From: a phage
Strand: one strand, 5' to 3'
Sequence record: PZ386947.1
Length of the DNA: 64,000 nucleotides
Positions 52,041-61,140 of the stretch are shown piece by piece. Each line of letters opens with the position of its first letter. Within the stretch, counting starts at the first letter, position 1. The notes under the pieces were generated by a model. It saw nothing but the letters and a program-made list of their open reading frames with translations. It made no database searches and was not told where the DNA came from. The position numbers were made by a program, and so were the translations under genes.

Positions 52041-52256
52041 TTACACCAGTTTGACCATACAATCGCCGTATTTCCACTTAGAAATAGACTTTTCACCATT
52101 AGAATAATAAACTTCAAGTTTAGCACGATTATTTTTAATTTGAATAACCTTTGCTGTCATCAAAGTTCCATACCCATAATAAACTGCAACTTCATCACCT
52201 ACATATACAGCGCTTCCGCGGTAATCGTGAATATAGTCAGTTCCTTCGAGCATCAT
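52041..52256 (-). CDS. hypothetical protein (71 aa)
   Basis: ORF track; ATG overlaps nrdC stop. Confidence 0.45.
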   Translation of the reverse strand: MMLEGTDYIHDYRGSAVYVGDEVAVYYGYGTLMTAKVIQIKNNRAKLEVYYSNGEKSISKWKYGDCMVKLV

Positions 52257-52516
52257 TTAAAATATTCTCGCAGTTGGTCAAATCCACCAATATGACTTCC
52301 ATCAGGAGCAAATACCTGAGGCATTGTCAAGCCGATTTGAGTATCACGACCTAGTTTAGTCAGAAGCTCAGCGATTTTCTCATCATCAAAAACACCTTTT
52401 TCCGGCATAATGTTGATAAATTCAAACGGCTGTTTCTTCACGGTCAAAAGACGTTTTGCATTATCGCAATACACACATTTATGAATGTTGCTATCATAAC
52501 CATATACTTTAAACAT
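52253..52516 (-). CDS. nrdC: NrdC thioredoxin/glutaredoxin
   Basis: 87 aa as T4 NrdC; redox motif CVYC; SD AAGGAATAAT. Confidence 0.75.
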   Translation of the reverse strand: MFKVYGYDSNIHKCVYCDNAKRLLTVKKQPFEFINIMPEKGVFDDEKIAELLTKLGRDTQIGLTMPQVFAPDGSHIGGFDQLREYFK

Positions 52517-52517
52517 A

Positions 52518-52760
52518 TTATTCCTTAATTCCTAGTACTTGTTTAAAAGTCTCGTCGTAATCAAGACTTTGGCCCGTTTGTTCTTTATGTTTGTATATAA
52601 TATCACTTACTTCTGATAGCATATTTTTATATGAACGAGTTAAAGCAGATTTAAGCACGCTGTATCTATCAGGAAATTTACCATGTTCATTATAATAAGC
52701 TATTGCTAATTCATGGACTGCCTTTTCAGCAGCCTCCATATATTCTTTACGCTTGGTCAT
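52518..52760 (-). CDS. hypothetical protein (80 aa)
   Basis: ORF track. Confidence 0.45.
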
Positions 52761-52762
52761 TT

Positions 52763-53152
52763 TTAATCCAAAATATTATTAGGCATTGGTTGAACACTCA
52801 CAAGTTCTTTAAAGAACTCAGTAGAGTCAGGCAATTTAACCATTTCCGGAGCATGCTTACTGAATTTATGTTTACATTGACGGCATTTATATTCAAGCTC
52901 TGGTTTACGCCAGTTAATCAATTGAACTTGTTCAGTACCGCATTCAGGGCAATTAGGAACGTTTTTAGAAGCTCTTTCACGTCGTTCAACCATAGCCATA
53001 ATAGCATCCCATGCTGGAGGTTTAAAATCTAAATCGTCGCAGCCGTGAATCTTTCCACGCATTTCCATATCATCTTCCTCACCAGCCATAATAATTTTAA
53101 TTAGACTAGAATTACTTGAAGCTGCAATATCTTCTAATAAACGCTTTTTCAT
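52763..53152 (-). CDS. C4 zinc-ribbon protein (129 aa)
   Basis: ORF track; CPECG...CRQC motif. Confidence 0.5.
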
Positions 53153-54075
53153 TTCAGTACCTCAATAGCATCACGTAAACCATTTGCTTTGGCGGTTAAA
53201 GCCTTAAGAACTTTAGTATGCTCTTCAATTTGTTTTTCAACTTCAATCAAACGAGCATTGAGATATTCGCGTTCTTCTTTCATAGTATCATTTCCATGAT
53301 TAGATTTTGGTGTAGGTTTAAATTCACTAGGGTCCTTTAATTTAATAACAAATTTAGTTTCAAACAGTGAAAGACCATAATTCGTATTATCATCAAAGGA
53401 TTTGACTACATCCATATCAGATAATAACACGCGCAAATTATAAGCCAAAGAACTAATAGTTTCATTGTGTTTATTAGCTTCGCGTGGTTTCATATACGGA
53501 AGATTTTTATATATCTCATGCGGAGCGCAAACGATAATTGACAATTCAAATTGTCCATTCTGGGACGATGGAATGAATTTAGCCGTAACCCAGTCTTTTA
53601 CATTCACATTAATAGTACGGTTATCACCATGACAAAACAGTCTACGAGAATGCTTAAAAAGCATATTCACGTTATTATTGAATTCGTGTGAAAATTCACT
53701 AGCAAATTTTTCTTTACTATCTTTAGAAAACCATTCTTCTAAATAAGTTCTTTTCACATCGTTAATAATATTAAATGTAACAACACTAGCATTTGATACA
53801 TTAGTCTCAATGTAGCTTGGATACATAAATTTTTTAACATTATTAACAGCTATCACAGAAGATAGTAATCGGGAACGTTTGAACCACTCGAGCAAAGAAC
53901 CAAGAGAATGTGAATACGCATTTTGTGTATCTTTACAAATATGGTTTTCCCATCCAATATAGTCTAAAAAATCACGAAGAATATTATTGATTACTGCTCT
54001 GTGTCCTATCTGATAATCACGATGTTTAGTAATAAGACTGTCAAAATAATCAATATAATGTTTACGAGTTTTCAT
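53149..54075 (-). CDS. hypothetical protein (308 aa) with C-terminal coiled coil; first of a tandem array
   Basis: ORF track; SD GTGAGAAGAAC; heptad-like C-terminal 45 aa. Confidence 0.55.
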   Translation of the reverse strand: MKTRKHYIDYFDSLITKHRDYQIGHRAVINNILRDFLDYIGWENHICKDTQNAYSHSLGSLLEWFKRSRLLSSVIAVNNVKKFMYPSYIETNVSNASVVTFNIINDVKRTYLEEWFSKDSKEKFASEFSHEFNNNVNMLFKHSRRLFCHGDNRTINVNVKDWVTAKFIPSSQNGQFELSIIVCAPHEIYKNLPYMKPREANKHNETISSLAYNLRVLLSDMDVVKSFDDNTNYGLSLFETKFVIKLKDPSEFKPTPKSNHGNDTMKEEREYLNARLIEVEKQIEEHTKVLKALTAKANGLRDAIEVLK

Positions 54076-54129
54076 GTTCTTCTCACTTGGTTAATGATTT
54101 ATACTCCGAGCCATCCTTGGCTTTAAATT

Positions 54130-55128
54130 TTACTTAATTAACTGTAAAGCTTGTTCAAGACGATCCAAGCGATTGACAGATTCTTCCCAAATCCTTTTAG
54201 CCTGCTCATATTCTTTCTGCGCTTTATTAGAAATTTCTAGAACTTCTTTATAAGCTTTTTCTAATGCAATAACTTCTGGACGAATTTCTACCGGTTCAGG
54301 TGAATCATCAAGACATTCCATTAGTTCCTCAAGGGTAGTTTCTTCTTTAGGAGTATTCACAATTTCATCACATTTTTGTTGGTAAATTTCTTTACTAGTA
54401 GGTGAATAAGTACATTTCACTTCACGAAGACTAACTACAATTTTATATCCTTCCCAACCGCATATATTCTTAAAAGGATATGTATGAATATTTTCTACTG
54501 TTTCCATACAGCCCAAAACCGCCTTTAATTGATAAGTTATAGTGCTAGCAATTGAGAAAAATTTATTAATATTCTTTTGGTTAGCGTTTGGTGTAAAAAA
54601 TCCATAATTCACAAAAATAGCTACTTTATTTTCATCAAGCTCATATTCTTTTACGATAATCATATCAGAAGCCAAAGGATGAATTTGACGATAATCGCCA
54701 TAACATAATTTAGAAGCTGATTTTAGAATTTGTCCTTTGAAAAGTCTGAAATTACTAATCCAACGACGAGTAAAAATATTCTCAGGGGCTTCTTTATTAA
54801 GATGATAAGAATTAACATCACCGAACCAATTATATCCTACTACATCTTTAGTTCGTTTAATTTCTTTCCCAAATTTACTAAGAATATCTCTGTTGACTAA
54901 GTATGAAAGAAGACGAGACCCTTTAAAGGTTTTCTTAATGTCATCTTTATCTACACGGCTAGAAATTTCACGAACTTCATGAATAAATTTGCCGGAAGAA
55001 ACAATACTTGCATCAGTATTATTGAGCCATTGATTGATAATAGAAATCACACTATTCTTACTAGACATAGGTTTAACTTTATCATCAATAACGCTATTGA
55101 ATGATTTGATATATTCGTTACGAGTCAT
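54130..55128 (-). CDS. hypothetical protein (332 aa) with C-terminal coiled coil
   Basis: ATG 55126-55128 after SD CTGAGGAGATTATT; track ORF reads through promoter. Confidence 0.55.
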   Translation of the reverse strand: MTRNEYIKSFNSVIDDKVKPMSSKNSVISIINQWLNNTDASIVSSGKFIHEVREISSRVDKDDIKKTFKGSRLLSYLVNRDILSKFGKEIKRTKDVVGYNWFGDVNSYHLNKEAPENIFTRRWISNFRLFKGQILKSASKLCYGDYRQIHPLASDMIIVKEYELDENKVAIFVNYGFFTPNANQKNINKFFSIASTITYQLKAVLGCMETVENIHTYPFKNICGWEGYKIVVSLREVKCTYSPTSKEIYQQKCDEIVNTPKEETTLEELMECLDDSPEPVEIRPEVIALEKAYKEVLEISNKAQKEYEQAKRIWEESVNRLDRLEQALQLIK

Positions 55129-55156
55129 AATAATCTCCTCAGTAGAAAGTAAGAAC

Positions 55157-55186
55157 ATTATACCACATCCTTGTGGCAAAGTAAAC
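55157..55186 (-). promoter_or_regulatory. T4-type early promoter
   Basis: GTTTAC, 18 nt, TGG TATAAT. Confidence 0.5.
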
Positions 55187-56205
55187 TAGTTCAGTGCATT
55201 TAGTGCATTGTTCAGTTTAGAACGTTGCTTCGTGAGATTTTTGACTTTTTCTTGAGCTTTTTCTAGCATCTTTTCAGCTTCTAGCACTTCATTGGTCGCT
55301 TTAACGAGTTCATCATCTACTGCCTTGATAGACTTCTCAATCGCATCCGCGTGCCATTTTTCAACAGGTTTAAGACTCGGATTTTCAATAGGAAGAAAAT
55401 TCACTTTATTGAATTTCCATGCATCTTTATTACCTGAACTATACATCCAAAATTTAGGATCGTTTGATGAGTAATTAGATGAATTTAAGTTATCTTGCAC
55501 TTCTTGCTTTTTCTCTTGCGGGACTTCGTCCTTTCTCAAAAAATCGTATTTAAATGAAACGATCATATCAAGTTCATATGTTGTTGTATGTTCCCAATTT
55601 CGCTCAAAACGAGGTAAAATCTTAGAATGAACAGCGGCAACAACATCCATATACTTAAATGCTTCTGTCAACTGCGATTTAAGGCATTCGCAAATTGAAA
55701 GAGAATTTTTTGTATTAGGTTTAAAGCTAATTCGTGCAGTTCTATTATTTTCTTTTAATGGTCTTACTTCCATCTGAAGAGTATAACCATCAAATTTCAG
55801 GTTCTTTAAGTTAATATCAGAACCTTTTAATCGACTAGCCGTCGACAAAATTTGCTTTAATTGTTTACGGAATAGAGCAATAAATCTCCATTCAATACGA
55901 TAATGATTTGGATTGAAAAATCCAGATGATAAATCGACCTTACTCTGACCAACACCTTGAACAAACAGAGGATTTTTATAATCAATAGTTTTACAGAAAT
56001 CGGTGAGCTGCTCACGAGCAGTCATTTGTGTAATATATCCCGCTTTACTAAAATGACGTAACCATTCACTGCTATTCATATACTTAAAGTGAATGGAACT
56101 ATTAACTCTATCAGGGTCTAAATTATTTTGGCACAAAAATGTCATAACATCACGAGTATAGCTGGCATTACGAACCATATCTTCAATTTGAGAACGAGTT
56201 TTCAT
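55186..56205 (-). CDS. hypothetical protein (339 aa) with C-terminal coiled coil
   Basis: ORF track; ATG 56203-56205. Confidence 0.55.
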   Translation of the reverse strand: MKTRSQIEDMVRNASYTRDVMTFLCQNNLDPDRVNSSIHFKYMNSSEWLRHFSKAGYITQMTAREQLTDFCKTIDYKNPLFVQGVGQSKVDLSSGFFNPNHYRIEWRFIALFRKQLKQILSTASRLKGSDINLKNLKFDGYTLQMEVRPLKENNRTARISFKPNTKNSLSICECLKSQLTEAFKYMDVVAAVHSKILPRFERNWEHTTTYELDMIVSFKYDFLRKDEVPQEKKQEVQDNLNSSNYSSNDPKFWMYSSGNKDAWKFNKVNFLPIENPSLKPVEKWHADAIEKSIKAVDDELVKATNEVLEAEKMLEKAQEKVKNLTKQRSKLNNALNALN

Positions 56206-56213
56206 AGTGTTCC

Positions 56214-57101
56214 TTAAGATTTAAGTAAATCAACAATTTTAATTAATTTTTCACGCTCAGATTTAGCTTTACTACTCAATCCAGATAGTCTGAAAATTTC
56301 ATCGTCATATTGTTGAATAGAAATATTCAGCTCTTCAATTTGCTTATTAAAATAATCAATTTGTTCAGAATGTTTTTCGTTACTACGAACTGGTACAGGT
56401 TTTGTAGGCAATTTAGTTGAACTGGATTCATCCGGGCGATAAATTAAAATACAACTTGAACCAATAGGGCATTTAGCACCAGATGAATATTCTAACGTTC
56501 CAGCTTCTTTTAAAACTTCAAAAGCTAAACAGAGATGATGCCCCATATTAACATAATCTGTAGAGCGAGCTCTGATATAATAATCATCGCCGCGAATACT
56601 AAATTTAAAGCATTTAAGGTCTTCTGTATTATTGGTCTTAAAAATCATTTGTTTATCTAGACCTTTAGCTAATCGAGCGCCTAATGCTAATAATCGTCGT
56701 TGATTTTCCCACAAATCCGCAATCATTTGATCGAATGATAATTTCGGCATTAGTCGACCATAAAGGTCATATCCTTTATTATAATTGCGAAGGATTTCAC
56801 TCGCATTAATACGAGACAACGCTCCAATTTTATTAAGGGCTTTCATAATGCGATTAGATAAACCCATTCCAGACCCGTTTGTTCGTTGTAAATGTTTATC
56901 TAATCCAAACCCAATATCAACTTTAAATTTATCTAAAATTTCAGCATGAACATCTCTGTCAATAACATTCAAATCCAAAGTTGGGTTAAATCTATGAAAA
57001 AATTTATCTGGCTCTCCACGACGAAGTACAGTCCATTCATTTAATTTTTTATTAACTAAAGATTTAATTACTGCATTGACATTATTAATTACTACTGACA
57101 T
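56214..57101 (-). CDS. hypothetical protein (295 aa) with C-terminal coiled coil
   Basis: ATG 57099-57101 after SD GAGTGAGAAAAAT; track start is upstream TTG. Confidence 0.5.
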   Translation of the reverse strand: MSVVINNVNAVIKSLVNKKLNEWTVLRRGEPDKFFHRFNPTLDLNVIDRDVHAEILDKFKVDIGFGLDKHLQRTNGSGMGLSNRIMKALNKIGALSRINASEILRNYNKGYDLYGRLMPKLSFDQMIADLWENQRRLLALGARLAKGLDKQMIFKTNNTEDLKCFKFSIRGDDYYIRARSTDYVNMGHHLCLAFEVLKEAGTLEYSSGAKCPIGSSCILIYRPDESSSTKLPTKPVPVRSNEKHSEQIDYFNKQIEELNISIQQYDDEIFRLSGLSSKAKSEREKLIKIVDLLKS

Positions 57102-57112
57102 ATTTTTCTCAC

Positions 57113-57517
57113 TCAATTTTCAATTTTACTAAATACACAGAATATGATGGAAAAGACTATATAAGCACAACACACAGATTGAACTAATACCATTCCAAAG
57201 AACCAAACAATATTATCAAACAATGTCTGTTTTACGTCGAAAGGACGTAAACTTACAGTAATATTATCGCCTTTTTCTATTGATGAATACATCTCTGGTG
57301 AAATATATTCGCTAAATCTATAACCGTCATTGAGTTCATATACGGCAATAAACGATAAACTAGACCCCTTTCCTTGAGTTCCTGTAAGGGTATTAACTAC
57401 AGTAACATCATAATCTTTATAATGCATATAATCATTAATTGCGTAATAACCATATGCAACTACTACACATAAACAACATATCAATAAATTCAATCTTTTA
57501 ATTATCAACTGTTTCAT
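57113..57517 (-). CDS. membrane protein (134 aa), two TM helices flanking a periplasmic domain
   Basis: ORF track; hydrophobic N- and C-terminal segments. Confidence 0.5.
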   Translation of the reverse strand: MKQLIIKRLNLLICCLCVVVAYGYYAINDYMHYKDYDVTVVNTLTGTQGKGSSLSFIAVYELNDGYRFSEYISPEMYSSIEKGDNITVSLRPFDVKQTLFDNIVWFFGMVLVQSVCCAYIVFSIIFCVFSKIEN

Positions 57518-57572
57518 AATAATCTCAATTAAAAGGGCTTAGAACCATTATACCATCCTTGGTATAAAGCGG

Positions 57573-58100
57573 TTATGCGAGTACCGTCTTTAACCGTTCT
57601 TCAAACTTCCGAAGAGTATTCTGGCGTTCAGCTCTTTGCTTTTTGTAAGTTTCAATACGCTCTGAAATGAGAGTGTATCGTTCATTTACTGATTCTTTCA
57701 TAAAATCAGGAATTTCACGAGAAGCTTTAATCTCATCAAATTTATCAATAACAGCTTGCTCTTCAGCAATTAAGTTATCATACATCAAAATATCTTTCTT
57801 GATGAACTCAATATCTTCTTGAGTTACACGAGATAACTTAGATGCTTTATCCTTTTTGTACTGTTCGTTAGTATCACGAGACCAGTGTAATGTACGATTT
57901 TTATTCGTATTCTTGTAAATTTCTACAATACCAATCTCATCAATAATAACGATCCAATTCCAACGAGATTTGTAAATTTGTCCTCCGTCAACCGTGATTT
58001 CACCTCCGATTGAGATGTCATTAAAGAACTTGCTTTGTGCTTCTGATTTAAATTTACCATCGTTGTAATTTACCAGGTTGAAAATATCTTTAGCGTTCAT
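57573..58100 (-). CDS. hypothetical protein (175 aa) with C-terminal coiled coil
   Basis: ATG 58098-58100 after SD ACGGAGGAACACAAA; track ORF reads through promoter/leader. Confidence 0.5.
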   Translation of the reverse strand: MNAKDIFNLVNYNDGKFKSEAQSKFFNDISIGGEITVDGGQIYKSRWNWIVIIDEIGIVEIYKNTNKNRTLHWSRDTNEQYKKDKASKLSRVTQEDIEFIKKDILMYDNLIAEEQAVIDKFDEIKASREIPDFMKESVNERYTLISERIETYKKQRAERQNTLRKFEERLKTVLA

Positions 58101-58128
58101 TTTGTGTTCCTCCGTAGTTGATAGTTGT

Positions 58129-58158
58129 ATAGTACCACAGAGGAACGGTCTTGTAAAC
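58129..58158 (-). promoter_or_regulatory. T4-type early promoter
   Basis: GTTTAC, 18 nt, TGG TACTAT; leader nearly identical to the one at 5419-5447. Confidence 0.5.
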
Positions 58159-58160
58159 AA

Positions 58161-58463
58161 CTAAAAGAAACTTCTTTCACAATTTTTTCCACTGAACCAC
58201 GCACTCACTGCTTTCTTAGTCTCAGGAGCAGTGTTATCCATAAACCATTCAAAGGCAGCCTTTTTATGATTCTGGAGGTCTTCTCGGGCTTTAATCTGCT
58301 CACGGTCTATTAACACTAACATATGAGCCTTTCTTGTCACCATGGGCTTCTTATGATTTTTTGAATACTCCCAGTCATTTGTCCATCGCATTGTCGTTGC
58401 GAATTGAAATACAGCTTCTTTAATTTTAGTTTCGTAAATTTCACGAGCCTTTGAGTATAACAT
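58161..58463 (-). CDS. hypothetical protein (100 aa)
   Basis: ATG 58461-58463 five nt after GGAGG; track start 12 nt upstream. Confidence 0.45.
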   Translation of the reverse strand: MLYSKAREIYETKIKEAVFQFATTMRWTNDWEYSKNHKKPMVTRKAHMLVLIDREQIKAREDLQNHKKAAFEWFMDNTAPETKKAVSAWFSGKNCERSFF

Positions 58464-58564
58464 CATTACCTCCATTTACCAGTTTAATTCTAGTCATCTT
58501 TTTGATGGCAGTCCATATAATCTATTTCTGAACTGCCTTTTTATCTTAGAAGGCCTCTTATGAA

Positions 58565-59533
58565 TTATTTCAGAAGAGTAACCTCAGCGATTTCTTCCCA
58601 ACCGTTTTTGTCGGTCATAATAAAGTCAGCAAGATAAAGAGCAGTACGCAGTGAAACATTGCGTAAACGATTAACATTGACTTTCATCCATGATAATGCT
58701 TTATAAGTTTCTTCATCAGAAAGACCGCGCTTTTGCATCATGTCAGTTGAAAGAATAACATCTTCAACCCTGACCATAATTTCTTCATTAGTGTGAACAC
58801 CCAAATCTAAATAAACTGAGCGGGACACTAATGCTTGTAAATGTGGAGCAAGTTTAGTACCACGGTCTAATTCGCGGTCAATATCAACGTTTGTGATAAA
58901 AACAATCGTTCCTTTAAATTCAAACTCACGCTCAATGCCTTTTTCTTCTAAGTAAGAAGATGCAGTGCTCCAGCAGACTTTACGGGTCTCTCCGGTGTCC
59001 AGAGCAGCTTTCAGAAGATTAAGAATGTCCATATCAGAGAAAACATCCACATCATCAATCAAAAGGACAGAATTCTCTTCACGATTATTCCAAAGCTGTT
59101 CATAAAGACCGATACCAGAGATTTTACCATTAATGCTTTTATACTCAATGTATCCAATATCATTTGCTTTATTTAAAGCTTTATCTAAAGAATACGTTTT
59201 ACCAATACCTGCTGCTCCCGAGATAATTAATGAACGAATGTTTCCGTTAATAATACCATTCGTCATCATTCCCATAACATTAAATCTTTTATTAATGCGG
59301 GTTTTCATATCTTCATACGATTCTTTAACTTCTTCAACTTTTACACCATCATATGAAATGTCTGATTTGTAAACCCAAACACCGCGACGTTTACCGTCAA
59401 TTTCAACAAAAACTTTACCATCTCCTTGTGCATCTACCGGAGCATTATCTGGGAACCATTCGCCTAAGAGCTCAAAAGTTCCAGAGATTTCTTTACCGAA
59501 GTAGATACCCTTATTGATAGTTACAGTTTTCAT
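58565..59533 (-). CDS. P-loop / AAA-type ATPase (322 aa)
   Basis: Walker A GAAGIGKT, Walker B VLLIDDVD; ATG 59531-59533 after SD GGAGAACAAA. Confidence 0.55.
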   Translation of the reverse strand: MKTVTINKGIYFGKEISGTFELLGEWFPDNAPVDAQGDGKVFVEIDGKRRGVWVYKSDISYDGVKVEEVKESYEDMKTRINKRFNVMGMMTNGIINGNIRSLIISGAAGIGKTYSLDKALNKANDIGYIEYKSINGKISGIGLYEQLWNNREENSVLLIDDVDVFSDMDILNLLKAALDTGETRKVCWSTASSYLEEKGIEREFEFKGTIVFITNVDIDRELDRGTKLAPHLQALVSRSVYLDLGVHTNEEIMVRVEDVILSTDMMQKRGLSDEETYKALSWMKVNVNRLRNVSLRTALYLADFIMTDKNGWEEIAEVTLLK

Positions 59534-59569: not shown

Positions 59570-59599
59570 ATAATATCACACTACTACCCTGCTGTAAAC
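59570..59599 (-). promoter_or_regulatory. T4-type early promoter
   Basis: GTTTAC, 18 nt, TATTAT. Confidence 0.45.
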
Positions 59600-60049: not shown

Positions 60050-60079
60050 ATAGTACCATAAAGCTTTATGCTTGTAAAC
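60050..60079 (-). promoter_or_regulatory. T4-type early promoter
   Basis: GTTTAC, 18 nt, TGG TACTAT. Confidence 0.5.
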
Positions 60080-60109
60080 AATTTTGTGAAAAATTTTTGA
60101 AATAAAAAA

Positions 60110-60127
60110 GGGAGCCCGAAGGCTCCC
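60110..60127 (-). terminator. intrinsic terminator (7-bp stem, UUCG loop, U-run)
   Basis: gggagcc cgaa ggctccc preceded on plus strand by A-run. Confidence 0.55.
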
Positions 60128-60129
60128 TA

Positions 60130-61140
60130 TCATTTATAATAACTTCGGTGGTTTTCAAGATAAACCCTCTCAAGGAAGTCATCCCAAAAACCCATGTCTA
60201 CTTTTTGCTGCATACCGTTCTTAGAAGCTTCAGTAGATGCTGCTTCTACTTGATCGACCACATCTTCCAAAAACTCTTGAACCGTTTTAAATGGATGTTT
60301 ACCCAACTTCACGTCGAGAATAAATGGAGCATCTTGGAGTGGATAAACCAAGTCACCAGTTTTGTAAATTTCCAATAGTTGGAGTCCACCACGGCAAGCA
60401 TGACTCATAGCTTTCCAGTCAATACCTTCATTGGCTTCGGCCTTACGAGCACGTTCACCGTATTCAGCATCTAATTTGTTCAGTGACTGCTTAAGCTCAA
60501 TAAGAGAAAGCGTTGTCTGATATTTACGACCCAACACTGTGTAAAACGTCTGTGGGCCTGTTTTCTCATGATTATGGAACACCCATTCACAGAATTCGTT
60601 TTCTGGAAGACGATGCTTAATATCTTCAACTTTAGTACGACGCTGCTTAATGGAACCGTCTTCTTGGTAATCAACCCATTGCTCAGGGATTTGATTAACT
60701 ACTTTCAATACATCGCGTAATGCAGCCAAACGAGAACCCTTAACGCCGTATTTAGAAGCTTGCTTACGGACATATCCTAAATAGGATTTCATGTTAGTCG
60801 TATAAAAACGAGAACGGTTGTCTTGAATAAACTTCCACACATCAGGCAAATCAGATTTAACCACTAACTCAGGTGGAGTGTGAAGCATATCTAACGCTAC
60901 AGTTTCACCATCTGCTGCTAATTTAAAGAAATATTTAAGACTATACAATTCGTGGTCAATATCATCTTTAGTGTTTTTAGATGATGTGTTGTTAGTGTTT
61001 TTACTCATATGCTCTTTAACATTTCCGATAAGAATATCGCGAGCAGGAGGAACAAAAATTTCTTTAAAATCTACATCAGATTCTGGAGTAGAAGTTCCAT
61101 AAAGATGACTACCAAAATAAGACTTAACTACAGTTTTCAT
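60130..61140 (-). CDS. Pol-beta-superfamily nucleotidyltransferase-like protein (336 aa)
   Basis: N-terminal motif GS-x11-DVD (YFGSHLYGTSTPESDVDF); ATG 61138-61140 with SD AAAGGTC; track start TTG upstream. Confidence 0.5.
   Translation of the reverse strand: MKTVVKSYFGSHLYGTSTPESDVDFKEIFVPPARDILIGNVKEHMSKNTNNTSSKNTKDDIDHELYSLKYFFKLAADGETVALDMLHTPPELVVKSDLPDVWKFIQDNRSRFYTTNMKSYLGYVRKQASKYGVKGSRLAALRDVLKVVNQIPEQWVDYQEDGSIKQRRTKVEDIKHRLPENEFCEWVFHNHEKTGPQTFYTVLGRKYQTTLSLIELKQSLNKLDAEYGERARKAEANEGIDWKAMSHACRGGLQLLEIYKTGDLVYPLQDAPFILDVKLGKHPFKTVQEFLEDVVDQVEAASTEASKNGMQQKVDMGFWDDFLERVYLENHRSYYK

Follow-up and report, generated by a model that had tools for sequence, protein, structure and literature searches.

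What are the proteins encoded by the genes nrdC.3 to nrdC.8 of T4-type phages, and why do several of them end in the same kind of helix? The question is raised by a 64,000-nucleotide (nt) stretch of phage DNA, sequence record PZ386947.1, which at its full length is called the window here. An earlier note, made from the sequence alone, had singled out five open reading frames (ORFs) between positions 53149 and 58100 and had taken them for a diversified paralog family with a common C-terminal coiled coil and variable heads. All five ORFs are found where the note had placed them, with the lengths it had given and on the minus strand, and alignment with the annotated T4 record assigns the names nrdC.3 to nrdC.8 to the ORFs of the array (Table 1). 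The tail sequence that the note had quoted is the C-terminus of the 332-amino-acid (aa) nrdC.4 protein, and the intervening membrane protein it had mentioned is nrdC.7, a member of phrog_2547 with two hydrophobic segments (aa 5-28 and 103-133). The reading put forward here, with a probability of about 0.6, is that the array belongs to an island of accessory early genes that a T4-type phage devotes largely to counter-defence and that its paralogs bind host immune proteins.

The first step is to settle who is related to whom. The products of nrdC.3 to nrdC.6 are very probably tandem, full-length, colinear paralogs of one family, and it is their N-terminal heads that carry this conclusion. The easiest pair to join is nrdC.3 and nrdC.4: BLASTP aligns them over 200 head residues, both fall into phrog_1435 and Pfam PF26897, and hhalign relates the two families with 98.6% probability. 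The family alignments combined database hits with orthologues from Mosigvirus, Dhakavirus, and Gaprivervirus loci. The nrdC.4 profile was also run exhaustively as a hidden Markov model (HMM) against 1.84 billion representative proteins, and the nrdC.3 representative came up at an expectation value (E) of 3.7e-7; the search returned seven proteins in total, all of them T4-type, and no cellular relative of the nrdC.4 family. For the more distant members, the comparison was made with the tails removed from the profiles and with 100 column shuffles as a control. The nrdC.4 and nrdC.5 heads score 33.3 in hhalign against 14.0±2.3 for the shuffles, and merging nrdC.3 with nrdC.4 raises the score against nrdC.5 to 40.8 (E=4.6e-5), which none of the 100 shuffles reaches. 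The three merged families score 24.8 against the nrdC.6 head (E=0.012), while the shuffles give 13.2±2.3 with a maximum of 19.3 (0/100).

Structure prediction and a multiple alignment lead to the same grouping. The AlphaFold2 model of nrdC.4, built on a 27-sequence alignment, has a mean predicted local distance difference test (pLDDT) of 82.6; it consists of an α/β domain (pLDDT ~90), a low-confidence linker, and one uninterrupted C-terminal helix (pLDDT 76-86). When this model is searched against BFVD with Foldseek, it matches an nrdC.3-type protein (E=3.2e-8) and the nrdC.6 of phage JS10 (E=3.5e-5, probability 1.00). When 17 sequences drawn from the four families are aligned with MAFFT, an N-terminal M-x-T-R-x-E-[YF]-I, three head motifs (FK-x-SRLLS...L-x-x-F, [RK][FW]-x3-[FL][RK]-x5-[IL]L-x2-[AG][SA][RK]L, and M[DE][VT]VE), a P-[VI] before the tail, and the end of the tail are all colinear. 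A homologous head with colinear motifs is thereby found in nrdC.3, nrdC.4, and nrdC.5, more weakly in nrdC.6, and not in nrdC.8. The shared architecture is an α/β head of ~230 aa, a poorly conserved and probably disordered linker of 20-60 aa, and a heptad helix of 45-50 aa.

Existing databases split these proteins into three or four families whose function is unknown (DUF7235 and PF26897 in Pfam; phrog_1435, phrog_2351, phrog_2257, and phrog_26858), which are joined here as one superfamily. For example, nrdC.5 is filed under phrog_2351 and matches DUF7235 over its whole length (E=1.6e-125), and nrdC.6 is phrog_2257. The 337-position phrog_26858 has matches to two paralogs, to the nrdC.4 head (90-270) and to the nrdC.5 tail (269-335). 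Two further database families of unknown function in the array are PF26901 and phrog_2274. The genes themselves are known T4 ORFs, and the new element is their unification into one head-linker-tail superfamily.

The next step concerns the tails. They were scored with a home-made measure that takes the best 35-residue segment with hydrophobic a and d and polar b, c, e, f, and g positions, and the 64 ORFs of 100 aa or more on the minus strand of the window were ranked by it. By this ad hoc score, nrdC.3 to nrdC.6 and nrdC.8 take ranks 1, 3, 4, 5, and 8 among them (not in gene order), the best segment lies at 87-95% of the protein length in all five, and the hypergeometric chance of five named genes falling within the top eight is ~7e-6. 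Helices are also modelled by AlphaFold2 at the C-terminus of nrdC.4, as described, and of nrdC.8 (aa 94-126 and 132-174, pLDDT 76-92), and together with the ad hoc score they give a predicted helix with hydrophobic a/d periodicity that runs through at least 4-5 heptads. The claim that all five proteins end in a heptad-like helix has therefore held up. In addition, nrdC.3 to nrdC.6 carry the post hoc motif L-x-x-[AI]-[LIV]-x-x-[LIM] no more than two residues from the C-terminus, and they are the sole carriers among the 81 minus-strand ORFs of at least 80 aa, the motif being absent from nrdC.8. It is present in 3/3 nrdC.3, 25/27 nrdC.4, and 11/13 nrdC.5 orthologues, and the strict regular expression matches one of five nrdC.6-family sequences. 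A narrower consensus of the tail end is [KR]-L-x-x-A-[LI]-x-x-L-K.

Could such tails be a trivial resemblance, that is, five unrelated proteins with the generic Glu/Lys-rich amphipathic C-terminal helix that is common in AT-rich phage genomes? Profiles of the last 60 residues give only weak hhalign matches (E=1e-3 to 0.4; the best, nrdC.3 with nrdC.5 in register, at E=1.4e-3), although this is to be expected of ~50 residues with biased composition. Others in the window also score high on the heptad measure, the comparable ones being gp46, a Rad50-like protein, and one more. For nrdC.8, a generic helix is essentially what the data say. For nrdC.3 to nrdC.6 it is refuted: given homologous heads, the tail they have in common was inherited and is no coincidence, and the high ranks with a best segment that is always C-terminal point the same way. 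As an account of all five proteins, chance resemblance is highly improbable.

What, then, is nrdC.8? Its family, PF26901, holds together at 67-100% identity; across genera the identity is 68-85%, with a ratio of nonsynonymous to synonymous substitution rates (dN/dS) of 0.07. Between nrdC.8 and nrdC.3 to nrdC.6, hhalign detects no signal (E at least 0.019), and a Foldseek search of BFVD with the nrdC.8 model matches its own family only. The model has a pLDDT of 69 overall; its β-rich first 90 residues are poor (pLDDT 43-63), and the part that follows suggests that the helices fold back on each other as an intramolecular two-helix hairpin. A truncated member of the nrdC.3 to nrdC.6 family was considered and rejected on the hhalign and BFVD results and on the missing terminal motif. 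Because the N-terminal part is modelled poorly, a distant fold relationship may nevertheless exist, although no sign of one was seen. What nrdC.8 shares with the four is just a general property, a C-terminal amphipathic helix.

The proposal of five paralogs with a common C-terminal module and variable heads is thus narrowed: it stands for nrdC.3 to nrdC.6 and falls for nrdC.8, which has no detectable homology to them. The earlier note had also described the N-terminal domains as very different, and here it must be corrected, since hhalign, shuffles, Foldseek, and MAFFT show homologous heads of one fold with colinear motifs. The case that it had itself set against its idea, heads that are unrelated known enzymes with low-complexity tails shared by chance, is not what is seen in nrdC.3 to nrdC.6, whose heads are homologous and match no Pfam enzyme family.

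A possible function of the family is suggested by work on one of its members. A T4 clone with a multi-gene deletion fails on cells carrying dsr1 of ECOR17, and nrdC.5 alone, supplied from a plasmid, lets it infect Dsr1 cells again (Srikant et al. 2022, PMC9391042). Dsr1 is a SIR2-type defence protein of E. coli ECOR17 that depletes nicotinamide adenine dinucleotide (NAD+) (PMC9391042). The 339-aa protein of the window is the full-length orthologue of the T4 protein. That study treats nrdC.5 as a single uncharacterised gene, without a mechanism, a structure, the paralog relationship, or the coiled-coil tail, and nrdC.5 is not among the entries of the EVADES preprint. Two neighbors have been linked to other defences by the HIDEN-SEQ preprint (bioRxiv 10.1101/2025.11.20.689424): nrdC.1 is reported to inhibit Septu, and bas37_0203 of phage KarlGJung, given in the supplement as a 528-nt gene at the nrdC.8 position, to inhibit Druantia type III. 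The nrdC.8 of the window is identical to the bas37_0203 protein, QXV82184.1, at 174/175 positions, and it differs from nrdC.3 to nrdC.6 in its family, predicted structure, lack of the terminal motif, and slow evolution. With nrdC.1, nrdC.5, and nrdC.8, at least three genes within 6 kilobases (kb) have reported anti-defence phenotypes, and the host-interaction role suggested earlier is supported by the literature for nrdC.5 (anti-Dsr1) and the nrdC.8 orthologue (anti-Druantia III). Since the anti-Dsr1 nrdC.5 is one of four tandem copies, nrdC.3, nrdC.4, and nrdC.6 become candidate immune inhibitors. That all four paralogs act against host defences is somewhat better than an even bet, and for these last three we infer it from their kinship.

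A very different role is implied by the names under which these proteins are filed. Many GenBank and UniProt records call homologues of nrdC.2 to nrdC.9 (window 53149-58475 and homologous records) "thioredoxin," single records have "tail sheath protein" or "ribonucleotide reductase alpha subunit," and a 2026 paper on DRT1 treats nrdC.8 as a nucleotide reductase, for which the sequence gives no support. Such labels appear to have propagated from the nrdC-based gene names, and neither sequence nor fold bears them out. The true thioredoxin, NrdC, is encoded next to the array. No Pfam family of thioredoxins, glutaredoxins, or other enzymes matches nrdC.3 to nrdC.6 or nrdC.8 at E up to 0.1; a thioredoxin or nucleotide-metabolism identity was rejected for want of Pfam support and because the topology of the nrdC.4 model differs. 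When the five proteins were compared with the PDB by sequence, no match had an E below 0.006, and those at that level were designed helical repeats. The best PDB hit of the nrdC.4 model in Foldseek, TRAPP Bet3 (E=0.046, template modelling [TM] score 0.18-0.30), is not regarded as a match.

Even so, the paralogs could be factors of host takeover or of a metabolic complex, such as organizers of nucleotide synthesis, with the effect of nrdC.5 on Dsr1 being indirect. The genes adjoin nrdC, nrdD, nrdG, and tk, the thioredoxin label is widespread, and a metabolic bypass is conceivable because Dsr1 depletes NAD+ (PMC9391042). However, Pfam yields no enzyme family, the nrdC.4 model does not have a thioredoxin fold, and the nrdC-based names record map position only. 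According to the preprint, both T4 and Bas37 can do without nrdC.2 to nrdC.11 on K-12 (bioRxiv 10.1101/2025.11.20.689424), dispensability on laboratory hosts being another point against a metabolic role. Sequence turnover is far above that of the adjoining metabolic genes, and two neighbors, nrdC.1 and nrdC.8, reportedly counter host defences directly. A metabolic role is improbable on balance.

Counter-defence genes would be expected among the accessory genes of a phage, and the array was examined for the marks of such genes. The same 5-kb region is 100% identical in Shigella phage CM8 and 92-96% identical in hundreds of Tequatrovirus genomes. By the Nei-Gojobori method, the window genes compared with those of T4 have dN/dS values of 0.18 for nrdC.3, 0.27 for nrdC.4, 0.25 for nrdC.5, 0.07 for nrdC.6, 0.38 for nrdC.7, 0.07 for nrdC.8, 0.06 for nrdC.9, 0.03 for nrdC.10, and 0.02 for nrdC.11. 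This means that nrdC.3 to nrdC.5 stand at 3-10 times the values of nrdC.6 and nrdC.8 to nrdC.11, with nrdC.7 higher still. The array also changes its gene content between genera, as the comparison of copy number across T4-like genomes proposed in the earlier note now brings out. Its order (with c8 for nrdC.8 and so on) is c8-c7-c6-c5-c4-c3-c2-c1-nrdC in Tequatrovirus, c8-c6-c5-c3-c2-c7-nrdC in Mosigvirus, which lacks nrdC.4 and has its nrdC.7 homologue elsewhere in the array, and c8-c6-c5-c4-c2-c1-nrdC in Dhakavirus and Gaprivervirus, which lack nrdC.3. In the loci of these last two genera, no homologue of nrdC.7 was detected either, among plus-strand ORFs that reach 100 aa. Among 50,697 phage records searched with tblastn at E≤1e-3, 742 have nrdC.8 and nrdC.6, 654 have nrdC.3, 582 have nrdC.5, and 554 have nrdC.4. 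The records with nrdC.3 form three identity classes, with 138 at 90% or more, 194 at 60-80%, and 320 under 60%. Scans of IMG/VR found four loci for nrdC.6 and eight for nrdC.8, and the GenBank phage collection was more informative. The genes are dispensable and turn over rapidly in sequence and gene content, with the exception of turnover in the conserved nrdC.8. "Fast-evolving," the term first applied to all five, suits nrdC.3 to nrdC.5 by dN/dS and nrdC.6 between genera only, and it does not suit nrdC.8.

Several individual genomes carry altered versions of the array. One Tequatrovirus (locus L004, 10035-10964) has a 60%-identical nrdC.3 allele whose central part resembles the Mosigvirus allele, and the nrdC.2 beside it is also replaced (dS ~1 against ~0.1-0.2 for its neighbors); the sequences suggest that nrdC.3/nrdC.2 alleles may be exchanged by recombination. 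In phage SP18 (locus L013, 7940-8844), the nrdC.5 homologue is split into ORFs of 170 and 106-125 aa, and on one Tequatrovirus contig (L004, 8950-9980), nrdC.4 is split into 193 and 158 aa. These split copies look like ongoing pseudogenisation or else sequencing frameshifts. A natural nrdC.5::nrdC.3 chimera of 299 aa (protein P0056) occurs, with nrdC.4 deleted, on contigs of up to 167 kb, one of which has the size of a complete genome. It combines nrdC.5 residues 145-271 (90% identical) with residues 134-308 of an nrdC.3 allele (56% identical), corresponding to window positions ~55390-55773 joined to 53149-53676, and the two parts join at a short peptide common to both (KFNKVN / NNNVNMLF), which hints at a deletion by microhomology inside the array.

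The two parts of each protein do not change at the same pace. When orthologues from different genera are compared, each of the four families shows higher identity in the tail than in the head: 70% against 54% identity for nrdC.3 (Mosigvirus orthologue), 59-63% against 36-52% for nrdC.4, 30-35% against 15-23% for nrdC.5, and 59-69% against 25-39% for nrdC.6. One way to explain this is a shared docking module, with the tails bringing all four paralogs to one partner (a host hub, a phage scaffold, or a hetero-oligomeric complex) so that the heads act at one place. Such docking would suit the same short motif at the extreme C-terminus of four tails, kept in most orthologues and loosely in the nrdC.6 family, as well as the ...LNKALEIMML with which p120, a homologue in Acinetobacter phage Acj61, also ends. 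It would suit the standing of the tail as the best conserved part of each protein, and genes lying in one or two transcription units would be co-produced. Beyond the heptad pattern and the last ~10 residues, however, tails taken from different paralogs show no significant similarity, which fits family-specific self-association better than docking. In addition, nrdC.5, supplied alone from a plasmid, rescued the T4 clone, which may retain other paralogs, and arrays without nrdC.3 or without nrdC.4 exist. Docking of all four on one partner is therefore considered unlikely.

The counter-defence reading can be put as a mechanism. Each paralog would be made early and would bind and inhibit, in stoichiometric fashion, a host immune protein of its own. 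Target specificity would come from the rapidly diverging head, with that of nrdC.5 directed at Dsr1, and the flexible linker would let the heads reach their targets. The conserved tail may form a homo-oligomeric coiled coil, giving avidity against defence complexes that are themselves oligomeric; oligomerisation or tethering by the tail is a proposal drawn from its heptad pattern. The nrdC.8 protein would be a separate, slowly evolving anti-Druantia III protein that happens to end in long helices. A bolder version makes the four paralogs subunits of one modular anti-defence assembly, with tails that zip together or dock on a common hub. If this were true, one particle would display several heads and neutralize several immune systems at once, and it would be refitted as paralogs are gained, lost, or swapped for other alleles; the idea is quite unlikely.

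A number of points weigh against the counter-defence reading and the architecture on which it builds. The link of the nrdC.6 head to the rest consists of a weak profile score (E=0.012) and one Foldseek match with a TM score of 0.39-0.45, and AlphaFold2 models cover nrdC.4 and nrdC.8 only among the five proteins. The terminal motif was defined after these proteins had been inspected. Several core positions of the tail helix are Ala, Ser, or aromatic, so the helix could pack on a partner instead of self-associating, and an AlphaFold2 monomer model cannot address oligomerisation of the tail. The dN/dS values are below 1 throughout and thus give no gene-wide sign of positive selection. In the literature, no direct binding of Dsr1 by nrdC.5 was found, nothing functional was found on nrdC.3, nrdC.4, or nrdC.6, and no experiment was found that links any of these three to a defence system. 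For the strains listed in the HIDEN-SEQ tables, disrupting nrdC.3, nrdC.4, or nrdC.6 has no significant effect.

The positions of the genes, tails, and signals are collected in Table 1. Gaps are short or overlapping among nrdC.8, nrdC.7, nrdC.6, and nrdC.5 and again among nrdC.4, nrdC.3, nrdC.2, nrdC.1, and nrdC, a layout suggestive of two transcription units. The spacers immediately upstream of nrdC.10, nrdC.8, nrdC.4, and a 72-aa ORF contain four near-identical sites with the pattern tTG-TTTAC(A/T)-17 nt-TGTGGTA(C/T)(T/A)AT. We take them to fit the T4 early-promoter consensus, and by position and consensus they are putative early-type promoters. The total of σ70-like sites is not above that of shuffles (43 vs 38.7±6.1). 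TTG-initiated ORFs of the mechanical ORF list start inside two of the promoter-like sites; the similar N-terminal peptides of such ORFs (...CGTIQLS..., ...YGTIQLS...) are spurious because the ORF finder starts inside these sites.

Table 1. Genes, tail helices, and signals of the nrdC.3 to nrdC.8 array and its surroundings in the window
Feature	Position	Strand	Description
NrdC (true thioredoxin)	52253-52516		87-aa ORF
nrdC.1	52518-52760		80 aa; 97.5% identical to T4 copy
nrdC.2	52763-53152		129 aa here, 104 aa in T4
nrdC.3	53149-54075	minus	308 aa; paralog 1; 93% identical to T4 NrdC.3; head ~1-240, linker 241-262, tail helix 263-308 (aa)
nrdC.3 tail helix, aa 263-308	53152-53289	minus	heptad rank 3/64; terminal motif present
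nrdC.4	54130-55128	minus	332 aa from ATG; paralog 2; predicted (AlphaFold2) α/β head 1-235, disordered linker 245-283, helix 284-331 (aa)
nrdC.4 tail helix, aa 284-332	54133-54279	minus	end ...RLEQALQLIK; heptad rank 8/64; AlphaFold2 helix 284-331; terminal motif present
Promoter-like site	55157-55185	minus	TTTACT, 17 nt, TATAAT, with TG; nrdC.5/nrdC.4 spacer
nrdC.5	55186-56205	minus	339 aa; paralog 3; Pfam DUF7235; 92% identical to T4 NrdC.5
nrdC.5 tail helix, aa 286-339	55189-55350	minus	end ...KLNNALNALN; heptad rank 1/64; terminal motif present
nrdC.6	56214-57101	minus	295 aa from ATG; paralog 4, most diverged; 98% identical to T4 NrdC.6
nrdC.6 tail helix, aa 245-295	56217-56369	minus	end ...KLIKIVDLLKS; heptad rank 5/64; terminal motif in window copy
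nrdC.7	57113-57517	minus	134 aa; membrane protein between nrdC.6 and nrdC.8; outside paralog family
nrdC.8	57573-58100	minus	175 aa; PF26901; separate family
Promoter-like site	58129-58157	minus	TTTACA, 17 nt, TACTAT, with TG; directly upstream of nrdC.8
nrdC.10/nrdC.11 region	58565-59533 and 60130-61140		
Promoter-like sites	60050-60078 and 59570-59598	minus	remaining two of the four near-identical sites
Terminator-like hairpin	60109-60128		strong, GC-rich, then T run; directly after nrdC.11

The genes on both sides of the array have features of their own. A CxxC...CxxC segment in the nrdC.2 protein resembles a zinc ribbon (Pfam Zn_ribbon_8, E=6.6e-6, below the cut-off), and the stop region of the nrdC.2 gene overlaps the end of nrdC.3 by 4 nt. 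On the other side, nrdC.10 matches P-loop/AAA proteins weakly, below the Pfam cut-offs, and nrdC.11 matches the RlaP-type nucleotidyltransferase family (E=3e-11). Across genera, nrdC.10 and nrdC.11 keep 77-84% identity, far above the array that lies between them and nrdC.

The family is not confined to close relatives of T4. Foldseek matches also include uncharacterised proteins of 300-370 aa from T4-like phages of Acinetobacter, Pectobacterium, Erwinia, Serratia, Klebsiella, Yersinia, and Enterobacter. In Acj61, a member of the Twarogvirinae, a tandem pair of 330 and 304 aa, both with heptad tails, lies between nrdC and nrdC.10; by organism and length, the pair presumably corresponds to the BFVD matches E5E4A1 and E5E4A2. 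The tandem position between nrdC and nrdC.10 is common to Tequatrovirus, Mosigvirus, Dhakavirus, Gaprivervirus, and Acj61, and the nrdC.3 to nrdC.6 family is Straboviridae-specific and occurs across the Straboviridae in tandem. Acj61 (locus L019, 9028-11322 and 1229-3938) has another tandem pair as well, the 372-aa hypothetical proteins p076 and p077, and adjacent genes for nicotinamide phosphoribosyltransferase and ribose-phosphate pyrophosphokinase, which are reminiscent of reported phage NAD+ reconstitution pathways.

The result is incremental in that the genes are known, two of them have known phenotypes, and the mechanism is a proposal. Its value lies in what it does for an uncharacterised part of one of the best studied phages: it corrects a widespread mislabelling as thioredoxin, and it extends the list of candidate immune inhibitors to relatives in phages of Acinetobacter, Klebsiella, Serratia, Erwinia, and Yersinia.

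Two known systems are useful for comparison. DSAD1 of phage SPbeta is a small protein that neutralizes the SIR2-domain protein DSR2 by direct binding. It resembles nrdC.5 in the proposed mode of action only, since it is an unrelated protein of an unrelated phage and its target is DSR2, not Dsr1. The second comparison is with the T4 proteins IPI, IPII, and IPIII, which are diversified, dispensable proteins of the T-even phages with a short common module and variable anti-defence bodies; IPI, for example, acts against GmrSD. IPIII acts against an unknown system of ECOR17 (PMC9391042). No sequence or fold relationship between these proteins and nrdC.3 to nrdC.6 was seen, and the modules differ in kind. 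That of IPI, IPII, and IPIII is an N-terminal capsid-targeting sequence, cleaved on packaging, of proteins that are injected with the DNA, whereas that of nrdC.3 to nrdC.6 is a C-terminal heptad helix on proteins whose genes have early-type promoters, as far as the putative sites indicate. In both groups, a shared short module is joined to diversified bodies, and this makes IPI, IPII, and IPIII the closest functional analogy to the nrdC.3 to nrdC.6 family.

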